Assembly (NCBI GenBank): GCA_018714385.1
Contig: DVNL01000007.1
Span: 93,657 to 157,656 of the forward strand
DNA: 64,000 nucleotides
Direction: 5' to 3'
DNA from: Candidatus Enterosoma merdigallinarum
GTDB taxonomy: Bacteria > Bacillota_I > Bacilli_A > RFN20 > CAG-288
Part shown: positions 61,436-64,000 of the stretch, piece after piece
Layout: the number at the start of each line of letters is the position of its first letter
Position numbering within the stretch: the first letter of the stretch is position 1
Program-made: the position numbers and the translations under genes
Notes under the pieces: model-generated
Database searches by the model: none
Told to the model about the DNA's origin: nothing
Seen by the model: the letters and a program-made list of their open reading frames with translations, nothing else

Positions 61436-63043
61436 ATGGAGAAGTATGTTTTCGTTACGGGCGGCGTCATTTCCGGATTGGGCAAAGGCATCACCGCGGC
61501 CTCCCTCGGCCGTCTTCTCAAGGCGCGAGGATACAAGGTCACCATGCAGAAGTTCGATCCTTATCTCAACGTCGATCCTGGAACCATGTCTCCAATCCAG
61601 CATGGTGAAGTCTTCGTCACGGACGATGGGACGGAAACGGACCTTGATTTGGGACATTATGAACGTTTCATCGATGAGAACCTTGACAAGAACTCCAATG
61701 TCACGACAGGCAAGATTTACGAGGAAGTTCTCGCCAAGGAAAGACATGGCGATTATGGCGGAGGCACTGTCCAAGTCATCCCGCACGTCACCAACACGAT
61801 CAAAAGCAAATTCCACCGGAATTACAAGGCCGATGAGACGGAAATCACCATTGTTGAAATCGGAGGAACGATCGGCGATATTGAATCACAGCCTTTCTTT
61901 GAAGCCATCCGTCAATTCCGCTATGAAATCGGCGTCGATAACTGCTGCATCGTCATGGTCTCTCTCATCCCTTATCTCAAGGCCAGCCAGGAGCTGAAGA
62001 CGAAGCCGACGCAGATGGCCGTCAAGTCGCTTCAATCCATGGGACTTCAGCCGGACATCATCGTCTGCCGCTCCGAATACCCCATCCCCAAGGGCGTCAT
62101 GGACAAGATCTCTCTCTTCTGTAACGTTCCCACCAATCACGTCCTTCCCAATCTCGACGTCGAGACAGTCTATGAGCTTCCTCTCATGCTCGAGAACGAA
62201 AACCTCGCCCAAGCCGTCGGGGAATCTCTCCATCTGCCGATGCCCGAGCCTGACCTTGCCGGATGGAAGCGCATGGTCGATCGCATCAAGACATCCAAGA
62301 AAGAAGTCAAGATCGCCCTCGTCGGCAAATATACCGCGCTTCACGATGCCTATATCTCTGTCAACGAAGCCTTGAAGGCTGCCGGCTTCCATAGCCGCAA
62401 CAAAGTCGACATCCAGTGGATCGAGGCGGAGGACGTCACGCCCGAGACGGTCGATTCTCTTCTTTCGTCCGCCGATGGCCTTATTGTCCCTGGTGGCTTC
62501 GGGAATCGAGGCATACCCGGCATGATCGAAGCTATCCGCTACGCCAGAACGCATGCCCTTCCGTTCCTCGGCATCTGTCTTGGCCTTCAGACCGCGATCA
62601 TCGAATTCTCCCGCGACGTTTTGGGGTTCGAAGATGCCGATTCCACGGAATTCAATCCTGCCACGATGCATCCGGTCATCCATCTGATGCCGGAGCAGAA
62701 CGCCGTCGAAAATCTCGGCGGGACGATGCGTCTGGGCTCCTATCCTTGCGTCCTTGAGACGGATTCCAAGGCCTACAAGCTCTACGGCGCCAAGAAGATA
62801 AACGAAAGGCATCGCCATCGTTACGAGGTCAACAACGATTATCGCAACGCCCTTCTCGATAAGGGCCTCAGACCTGTCGGATTCTCTCCTGATGGGCGGA
62901 TCGTCGAGATGGTCGAGATTCCGACCCATCCCTTCTTTGTCGCCACGCAGGCCCATCCCGAGTTCAAGTCGAGGCCGGACAGGCCGCATCCCCTCTTCCG
63001 CGGTTTCGTCGATGCGTGCGTCCGCCATCGCGACGAGAAGTAA
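61436..63043 (+). CDS. pyrG: CTP synthase
   Basis: MEKYVFVTGGVISGLGKGI, the GTIGDIES region, and a GATase domain (GICLGLQ, HRHRYEVN). Confidence 0.97.
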   Translation: MEKYVFVTGGVISGLGKGITAASLGRLLKARGYKVTMQKFDPYLNVDPGTMSPIQHGEVFVTDDGTETDLDLGHYERFIDENLDKNSNVTTGKIYEEVLAKERHGDYGGGTVQVIPHVTNTIKSKFHRNYKADETEITIVEIGGTIGDIESQPFFEAIRQFRYEIGVDNCCIVMVSLIPYLKASQELKTKPTQMAVKSLQSMGLQPDIIVCRSEYPIPKGVMDKISLFCNVPTNHVLPNLDVETVYELPLMLENENLAQAVGESLHLPMPEPDLAGWKRMVDRIKTSKKEVKIALVGKYTALHDAYISVNEALKAAGFHSRNKVDIQWIEAEDVTPETVDSLLSSADGLIVPGGFGNRGIPGMIEAIRYARTHALPFLGICLGLQTAIIEFSRDVLGFEDADSTEFNPATMHPVIHLMPEQNAVENLGGTMRLGSYPCVLETDSKAYKLYGAKKINERHRHRYEVNNDYRNALLDKGLRPVGFSPDGRIVEMVEIPTHPFFVATQAHPEFKSRPDRPHPLFRGFVDACVRHRDEK

Positions 63044-63062: not shown

Positions 63063-63092
63063 GGGCACCCGACTCGGGTGCCTTTTTGTTTT
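63063..63092 (+). terminator. Terminator after pyrG
   Basis: GGGCACCC gactc GGGTGCC followed by TTTTTGTTTTGTT. Confidence 0.8.
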
Positions 63093-63253: not shown

Positions 63254-63282
63254 TTGAAAGCCTTTCTTTTTGTTGTTATTCT
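63254..63282 (+). promoter_or_regulatory. Candidate promoter of the GH3 gene
   Basis: TTGAAA (63254-63259), 17-nt spacer, TATTCT (63277-63282). Confidence 0.35.
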
Positions 63283-63314
63283 GTTGGCAGAATTCTGAAT
63301 CACAGGAGGTCATC

Positions 63315-64000
63315 ATGACTAGAAAACGCAGAATTTCGACACGTTCTCTCTTCACCCTTTCTGCGGCTGCGATTCTCTCTCTTGCTTGCCTGGCATCGAC
63401 TCAGGCAACAGTGCGGGGGGGGTTGATGTAGCCACAAAAAGGCTTCTCGCCAATCAGACCTATTCTTCTGACTATTCTTCCAAGCAGGAGGCTATGGAAG
63501 CAGGACTTGCCATCAACGAGCAGATTGCCGAAGAGGGCATGGTCCTTCTGAAAAACGAGAGAAACACCCTTCCGTTGACGACGCGTTCGGGAAGCGAGGC
63601 GACCAGGGTCACCCTGTTTGGCTATGCTTCTTATGCTCCTCAAGGCGGTGCCGAGGGCGGTGGCGACAGCTCCGCAGGTACCGTCCATTTGACGTCCGAC
63701 ATTTATTCCAGTCTCCGTAGCGCCGGCTATGTGACGAACCCGGCCGTTCGTGCCTTCTATGAGGAGAAGACGGCGGAAGGCGCCGCCCAGGAGACTCCGA
63801 CGACTCCCACGGATTTCACGACGGTCGATGAACTAATCAAGGACACTTCCATCACCGGCACTTACAACAACTACGGCGATGCCGCCATCGTCGTCTTTTC
63901 CATCGGCAATGTCGCCGATACCAGCATTCAGCACAAGTATCAGCTCGACTCCAAGCAGATGGCTCTTCTCAAGCACGCCGAGGACAATTTCGACAAGGTC
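63315..64000 (+). pseudogene. Secreted or lipoprotein GH3-family glycoside hydrolase, frame interrupted at a G8 tract (5' part; runs off the window)
   Basis: AGGAGG-ATG 63315 opens the signal peptide MTRKRRISTRSLFTLSAAAILSLACLASTQATVRGGLM*, with its stop at 63429-63431. From the G tract a different frame is open to 64000 (VDVATKRLLANQ...AINEQIAEEGMVLLKNERNTLPL...RVTLFGY). This looks like GH3, but it has no start codon of its own. Confidence 0.6.
63415..63422 (+). repeat. Homopolymeric G8 tract at the signal-peptide/mature-domain junction of the GH3 gene
   Basis: Counted directly: g63415-g63422. G9 or G6 would put both halves in one frame. Confidence 0.95.

Follow-up and report, generated by a model that had tools for sequence, protein, structure and literature searches.

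A stretch of 64,000 nucleotides from the genome of Candidatus Enterosoma merdigallinarum (assembly GCA_018714385.1, contig DVNL01000007.1) carries, close to its end, a run of eight guanines that parts a signal-peptide sequence from the body of a glycoside hydrolase family 3 (GH3) enzyme read in another frame. This stretch, hereafter the window, is C4:93657-157656 of a metagenome-assembled genome (MAG) of 14 contigs, 1.38 Mb and 52% GC, estimated to be 88.5% complete. Is the interrupted gene a decayed one, a product of faulty assembly, or a gene caught in one position of a switch? Comparison between assemblies, on which our answer draws, indicates that the G-run is probably a slipped-strand contingency tract, one that would turn a surface GH3 glycosidase ON and OFF at translation. 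The features on which the question turns are listed below in window coordinates.

63304-63309, forward strand: Shine-Dalgarno (SD) sequence AGGAGG, 5 nt before the ATG.
63315-63431, forward strand: putative OFF-state open reading frame (ORF) of 38 codons, from ATG 63315-63317 to TAG 63429-63431.
63415-63422, forward strand: G8 homopolymer, the proposed switch, uninterrupted, with 100 nt from the ATG to the tract.
63422-64000, forward strand: start of the GH3 body frame, VDVATKRLLANQ..., which runs past the window.
63494-63496, forward strand: internal in-frame ATG (MEAGLAINE...), with an AGGAGG at 63486-91 only 2 nt away.

Direct reading recovered the AGGAGG, the ATG at 63315, the signal-peptide ORF, the G8 and the TAG at 63429-63431, all as given in the original prediction. 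The zero frame from ATG 63315 reads MTRKRRISTRSLFTLSAAAILSLACLASTQATVRGGLM up to that stop and is laid out as a charged n-region (MTRKRRISTR), a hydrophobic core and a possible lipobox (LSLAC), followed by ...ATVRGGLM; these signal-peptide features were judged by eye. The body frame (-1) is open from 63323, just after the TAG at 63320-63322, through the tract to the end of the window, as had been described, and on the full contig 1073 codons follow the tract, free of any further stop or frameshift, as far as the window-equivalent position 66643 (C4:160299). The accompanying claim that this frame has neither a start codon nor an SD of its own needs a small correction. The frame does hold a TTG at 63386, which has no SD, and the ATG at 63494, preceded at 2 nt by an AGGAGG that derives from conserved Q-E-A codons and used in the public annotation as the start of a 1049-aa truncated product (P0121, on a 286,642-nt contig that is the window's own). 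Neither of these starts would supply a signal peptide for export.

Frame arithmetic for the window allele places G9 or G6 in frame and G8 out of frame, and the fusion foreseen for the former two (...ATVRGG-VDVATK) occurs naturally. A protein search returned P0001, a 98% identical protein of 1102 aa that begins MTRKRR...ATVRGGVDVATK and corresponds to the predicted fusion. In the 90% identity cluster, among the 15 listed of its 23 members, full-length forms of 1102 aa were found on at least 25 contigs and truncated calls of 1042 or 1049 aa on at least nine. Reading the underlying DNA distinguished two alleles by their upstream flanks, the second of them in two phases:

Allele A, ...ACAGTGC followed by G8, OFF: the window, ERZ1682843, ERZ1682845 and SRR22579483.
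Allele B, ...ACGGTGCGA followed by G7, ON: ERZ24773492, ERZ28614286, SRR27381167 and SRR27381325 (contigs L025, L026, L073 and L074).
Allele B, ...ACGGTGCGA followed by G8, OFF: ERZ28614401 and ERZ809412 (contigs L029 and L031).

The allele B contigs thus share identical flanks (...GCGA) and differ in tract length, with G7 ON and G8 OFF in different samples; ERZ28614286 holds 12 further similar contigs besides the one that was read. The ON form of allele B (CGA GGG GGG G) is equivalent to a G9 in which the second G has become A, a synonymous CGG-to-CGA change. Between OFF and ON alleles the ratio of nonsynonymous to synonymous divergence (dN/dS) was 0.05-0.11, and the OFF alleles carried no second lesion in more than 1000 codons. 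Two other short calls carry no information on the state of the tract: one lies on a scaffold with an N-gap beside it, the other on a contig that stops 72 nt short of it. Gaps and breaks of this kind at one tract, in two assemblies, may at most hint at mixed tract lengths. A scan of JGI metagenomes for G6 joined to the 3' flank gave 0 matches.

The run is also found outside the species. Orthologs with 83-84% amino acid identity in two MAGs labelled "uncultured Firmicutes" (G005 and G016, whose contig and bin names suggest short-read assembly with MEGAHIT and IDBA) carry G8 at exactly the same site, there in frame on account of upstream bases that differ from those of the window, with the junctions ...SGAGG-VNVATN and ...SAPGG-VNVATN. 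The lineage represented by P0004 (locus L075; 79% identity) has G9 at the same site, out of frame, and its protein was called from a GTG just before the run. More distant orthologs (53-56% identity) have no run. Comparison with related genomes thus placed the tract at the same codon in three sister lineages, in differing phases, in addition to the flank-identical G7 and G8 within the species. Synonymous divergence (dS) from G005 and G016 is 0.61-0.69; at this distance neutral evolution would not have kept eight Gs in a row, of which three occupy third codon positions. The genome's own codon usage points the same way: in 665 long ORFs, GGGGGG encodes only 3 of the 1793 Gly-Gly pairs, where codon usage would predict 33.6, an 11-fold avoidance which implies that G-runs are normally purged from coding sequence and that the tract is maintained against the bias of the genome. 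The reading frame has been broken at the run at least three independent times, in allele A, in the G8 form of allele B (its two contigs counted as one event) and in the P0004 lineage.

The question then is whether this tract stands by itself in the genome. Runs of G or C of 4, 5, 6, 7, 8, 9 and 10 nt number 4459, 891, 66, 5, 6, 4 and 1, respectively. Extrapolating analytically from the 973 runs of at least 5 nt, with an extension probability of 82/973 = 0.084, about 0.6 runs of at least 8 nt would be expected per 1.38-Mb genome (about 0.03 per 64-kb window), and 11 were observed, an approximately 20-fold excess. A whole-genome count of A/T runs showed no comparable excess, apart from one T13. 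This T13 is flanked by two T8 within 80 nt (C6:23294-23374); the genome has no other long A/T runs. A scan for +1 and -1 frameshifts at homopolymers of at least 6 nt was tried as a measure of assembly quality and abandoned as too noisy, adjacent genes being fused by chance. The genome-wide count bears out the expectation of further poly-G and poly-C tracts: the runs lie in 5' coding sequence and in promoter spacers, and some of them vary between strains. At the level of sequence, the GH3 locus has every hallmark of the homopolymer contingency class: a run of about seven or more in the 5' coding sequence, a toggle of one unit, polymorphism within the same species, positional conservation and a genome-wide excess of such runs; the trait that defines the class, mixed tract lengths within a clone, belongs to the population level. 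The other runs are as follows.

C4:13123-13130: C8, in frame, 158 nt into a Ser-rich lipoprotein gene (C4:12966-15188).
C13:175214-175223: G10, 45 nt into an SD-led small ORF, MPNEKTFEFGDKDEW-RGGG..., out of frame.
C10:42383-42391: G9, in the promoter spacer TTGACA-N19(G9)-TATGAT, before a DUF975 membrane protein gene.
C6:10670-10678: G9, in a promoter (G9-TAAAAT), before a zinc-ribbon membrane protein gene.
C9:1198-1205: C8, in the promoter TTGCTT-N16(C8)-TAAAAT, before another GH3 paralog.
C4:12197-12204: G8, between divergent ABC transporter and TetR-like genes.
C8:5522-5530: G9 (G9-TAAAAA), upstream of a second TetR-like gene.
C5:77382-77390: G9, a promoter run in sister species at the orthologous site.
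C10:45581: G8, intergenic.
C1:21938: G8, between a LytTR regulator gene and that of its kinase.

Two of these runs are intragenic. The Ser-rich lipoprotein (740 aa) has a long poly-Ser linker and its C8 just after the signal peptide, an architecture like that of the GH3 locus, and at C13:175214 either G11 or G8 would fuse the small ORF to an acidic protein of 101 aa that matches no Pfam family, making this a second intragenic tract in the OFF state. In several promoters of this genome and of the sister species, G8 or G9 directly abuts the -10 box (G9-TATGAT, G9-TAAAAT, G9-TAAAAA, G8-TATTAT, G8-TATATT), and where a -35 box is recognisable the abutting run sets the spacer at 16-19 nt. Lengths at orthologous promoter sites differ between species: the C5 site has G9 here and G8 in G005 and G016, within TTGACA-N17-TATTAT and TTGACA-N17-TATATT promoters (L033, L046), and the C9 site has G8 here (listed above as C8) and G9 in G005. 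Tracts other than that of the GH3 gene were also compared between near-identical strains through exact-protein look-ups, which returned G9, G9, G12 and GGGGTGGG at C10:42383 and G8, G8 and G7 at C4:12197.

The protein behind the tract is, as had been proposed, a GH3 enzyme preceded by a signal peptide, with the qualification that its domains are permuted. Their order is GH3 C-domain, Fn3-like domain, GH3 catalytic N-domain, He_PIG immunoglobulin (Ig)-like domain and a C-terminal transmembrane (TM) helix (...HFFKKN), as supported by Pfam matches to PF01915 (94.5 bits, cut-off 31, 1.1e-26), PF00933 (68.1 bits, cut-off 27, 1.2e-18), PF14310 (54.5 bits, cut-off 25) and PF05345 (He_PIG). The protein is co-linear with the beta-glucosidase PDB 5wug over three stretches (E 6e-69), and its ...WGFRGFVVTD aligns with ...WGFEGFVMSD of 2x40 with conservation of the Asp, which in the GFVMSD motif we take to be the nucleophile, D242 of TnBgl3B. 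The permuted GH3 body and the aligned nucleophile are what it shares with 5wug and 2x40 (T. neapolitana Bgl3B), respectively; it differs from them in adding a signal peptide, the He_PIG Ig-like domain and the C-terminal TM anchor. The possible lipobox (consensus [LVI][ASTVI][GAS]C) reads LSLAC in the window, LSIAC in G005 and G016 and LSLAS in the P0004 lineage, where the absence of the Cys leaves lipoprotein status uncertain. Most members of the genus carry 20-35 paralogs of the domain-permuted GH3 in genomes of 1.2-2.2 Mb; those in the window's own genome include C4:161271-163847, C4:22983-25670, C5:28410-31091 and C9:114-1139. A further difference between alleles A and B is an indel of 7 aa within a repeat of heptad-like type (DDLDGKIDDLTGKVD vs DDLDGKID; C4 ~160170-160230, compared with L025), part of a stalk that precedes the TM anchor and has longer versions in the sister species.

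How the gene would be expressed is indicated by the features upstream of its ATG.

61436-63043, forward strand: pyrG, encoding CTP synthase (ORF with Pfam CTP_synth_N).
63063-63083, forward strand: terminator-like hairpin and T-run 3' of pyrG, with 9 pairs, 7 of them GC, followed by TTTTTGTTTTG (L005 1142-1162).
63254-63282, forward strand: candidate sigma-70-like promoter, TTGAAA-17-TATTCT, with a TG before the -10 box, about 33 nt 5' of the ATG (L005 1333-1361).
63290-63337, forward strand: near-invariant block of 48 nt comprising the leader and the first 8 codons, GAATTCTGAATCACAGGAGGTCATCATGACTAGAAAACGCAGAATTTC.

The hairpin sets the GH3 gene apart from the transcription unit before it, and the promoter is a candidate by consensus match only, at 9 of 12 positions. 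Across four species-level lineages a single base varies in the leader block (C or T just before the ATG, in G016), whereas on either side of it, in the promoter and in the later codons, the lineages diverge. Within the block, GAAUUCUG pairs with CAGAAUU-C in an 8-bp stem that encloses the SD and the AUG and that shows no covariation, because the block is virtually invariant; its motif CAGAATTCTG occurs once in the genome. The block could be a translational or an operator element. Downstream, no terminator-like site was found between the GH3 gene and the next two genes, which encode a 226-aa putative lipoprotein and a GH3 paralog that is 47% identical and begins about 1 kb after the GH3 stop.

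These parts would combine into a simple mechanism. The gene is equipped with a candidate promoter of its own and a strong SD and opens with a signal peptide; the gain or loss of one G at replication would move the ribosome between two frames at a tract that lies directly after that peptide. The ON frame would yield an enzyme of 1109 aa in which the signal peptide is followed by the permuted GH3 part, the Ig-like domain and an anchor in the membrane at the C-terminus; the OFF frame would end after 38 codons, leaving a signal-peptide stub. The window, with its G8, would represent the OFF state, and G9 would be ON. Switching may be frequent and reversible within a population, and it may pay off adaptively, for example as bet-hedging over a surface enzyme that could act as an antigen, be used as a receptor by phages or impose a cost.

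Several observations weigh against a switch. Allele A has G8 in all four of its assemblies and was never found ON, one of these assemblies (ERZ1682845) agrees with the window at all tracts compared and possibly represents one and the same strain, and the pattern fits a loss fixed in the lineage as well as it fits a switch held OFF. The G-to-A change, which shortens the run in the ON form of allele B, seems to stabilise the gene and not to favour switching. Of six runs compared between strains, three show no variation, namely C6:10670 (G9 in 6/6), C4:13123 (C8 in 3/3) and C5:77382 (G9 in 2/2); hypervariability is not shared by all long G-runs here. At C6:10670 the flanks differ by single-nucleotide polymorphisms among six assemblies of different strains (loci L076-L080), yet the run is G9 throughout, which reflects either selection for exactly nine Gs or slippage rates lower than the other tracts suggest. 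Nearly every member of the genus, this genome included, moreover has MutS (MutS_I) and MutL domains, so that slippage rates may be modest; loss of mismatch repair, which had been entertained as a cause of tract instability, was rejected on the same ground. Three genomes of family f3, relatives at the level of the order (G026, G033 and G039; 99-100% complete), gave no MutS_I or MutL domain match in any. As a separate observation, G039 has 20 G8 pattern matches.

Most of these points are what would be expected if the run were a fragile hot spot devoid of switch function and allele A a recently fixed loss, that is, a young pseudogene in a stable strain polymorphism. Allele A, the invariance of some other long G-runs and the presence of mismatch-repair genes are all compatible with it, and with 20-35 GH3 paralogs per genome, one of them about 1 kb downstream, loss of this copy could be tolerated. 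We nevertheless consider this explanation unlikely. The run has been kept at the same codon in four lineages at a dS of about 0.6, despite the 11-fold avoidance of GGGGGG, and at a merely fragile site a synonymous change should have interrupted it. The OFF state has arisen at least three times, as counted above, the OFF alleles have acquired no second lesion and show the low dN/dS of a constrained protein, and the excess of runs in promoters and 5' coding sequence argues for a class that is maintained.

Could the G8 allele instead make the full-length enzyme, by a -1 ribosomal slip on G GGG GGG or by the addition of a G by RNA polymerase? The frameshift would then be a programmed setter of expression level rather than an OFF state, a view to which, like the recoding itself, we give very little weight. 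The zero-frame CGG GGG GGG is formally an X XXY YYZ heptamer on which a -1 slip would give ...VRGG-VDV, and transcriptional slippage at homopolymers is an established phenomenon. Against this, no stimulatory structure was found downstream (folding z-score -1.1 for 63423-63500) and there was no Rfam match; a shift in the opposite direction would be needed in the OFF form of allele B, where G8 follows CGA, and in the sister lineage that is OFF with G9, so that no single recoding rule fits; and the existence of in-frame genomic alleles means that the length of the DNA itself differs. That the true tract of the window is G9 and its gene intact is the least probable explanation of all. In its favour, consensus errors classically fall in homopolymers, the sequence comes from a MAG of 14 contigs and 88.5% completeness, and one scaffold has its N-gap and one contig its end near the tract. 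Yet four separate assemblies, which stem from two studies or more and include a Logan assembly, show G8 with allele A flanks, and they also resolve G9, G10 and G12 elsewhere, so that assembly error is unlikely; the G9 found identical in 6/6 assemblies indicates low assembly noise at such runs, and contig names (NODE_ with cov_, k141_) look like the output of short-read assemblers, with which errors of homopolymer length would be uncommon.

The two findings that would have refuted a phase-variable locus, an error of assembly and additional disabling mutations, are thus countered by the G8 of four assemblies and by an intact downstream frame. The contingency reading, and with it the phase variation put forward in the original prediction, accordingly has good though not compelling odds in its favour: the flank-identical G7 and G8 alleles, the tracts of the sister lineages and the genome-wide runs all support it. 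A broader proposal, to which we assign slightly less than an even chance, is that of a genus-wide poly-G "phasome" in which G-runs that abut the -10 boxes of promoters or closely follow signal peptides would stochastically reshuffle the display of the 20-35-copy GH3 family, of envelope proteins, transporters and regulators.

What would follow from such a switch? Homopolymer contingency loci are textbook material for a handful of cultured pathogens and, to our knowledge, hardly documented in uncultured gut commensals; full-text searches brought up no account of poly-G phase variation for glycoside hydrolases, GH3 enzymes included, or for this lineage. The locus would belong to a known contingency class, from whose familiar members it differs in its host, an uncultured gut Firmicute of small genome, in the presence of mismatch-repair genes and in its target, a GH3 enzyme of a greatly expanded family. 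If the reading is true, part of the "pseudogene" load of such MAGs would be reversible regulation (as with the annotated 1049-aa protein), carbohydrate-active enzyme (CAZyme) repertoires taken from consensus MAGs could misstate what individual cells display, and tract-length ratios in metagenomes could offer a cultivation-free readout of selection by diet, antibody or phage on surface enzymes. The G-runs in promoter spacers form a concrete set for testing whether spacer length tunes expression in this group. Should the phasome exist as well, glycan foraging would be bet-hedged by slippage, in a CAZyme-centred commensal counterpart of the contingency genes of pathogens that could be read directly from metagenomes.

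Which known systems does the locus resemble? The invertible promoters of Bacteroides, which control capsule and glycan utilisation, offer the likeness of a gut commensal that diversifies its surface and glycan functions; their mechanism is site-specific inversion by a recombinase and not slippage, and no inverted-repeat-flanked promoter was seen here. The variable surface lipoproteins of Mycoplasma, exemplified by the poly-A of the M. hyorhinis vlp promoter, are likewise membrane-anchored surface proteins under the control of homopolymer length, in small-genome relatives among the Bacilli, and a 49% identical homolog of the present protein occurs in an "Anaeroplasmataceae" MAG. The runs described here are of G or C rather than of A or short repeats, and the protein is a predicted enzyme with intact catalytic motifs instead of a repetitive antigen family.

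Neisseria meningitidis and Haemophilus influenzae combine intragenic runs with runs between the -35 and -10 boxes (compare porA, opc and fetA), as this genome does, and the mismatch-repair proficiency of the organism is a further likeness. Differences lie in phylum and lifestyle, the present host, whose genome measures about 1.4-1.6 Mb, being a commensal, and in the promoters, where the G-run typically abuts the -10 box and spacer length may be linked to expression. With the poly-G genes of Campylobacter jejuni, whose tracts of G8-G13 govern surface structures, the locus shares an uninterrupted run in the 5' part of the ORF, a toggle of a single G, a genomic excess of runs of G8 or longer and the occurrence of both ON and OFF forms among natural isolates; that the excess runs concentrate in surface-related genes may likewise be counted as a likeness. 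C. jejuni does without MutS/MutL mismatch repair; the present genome has MutS_I and MutL domains. The gene targeted here, in an uncultured gut Firmicute, encodes a GH3 enzyme and is not a glycosyltransferase, flagellar or capsule gene.

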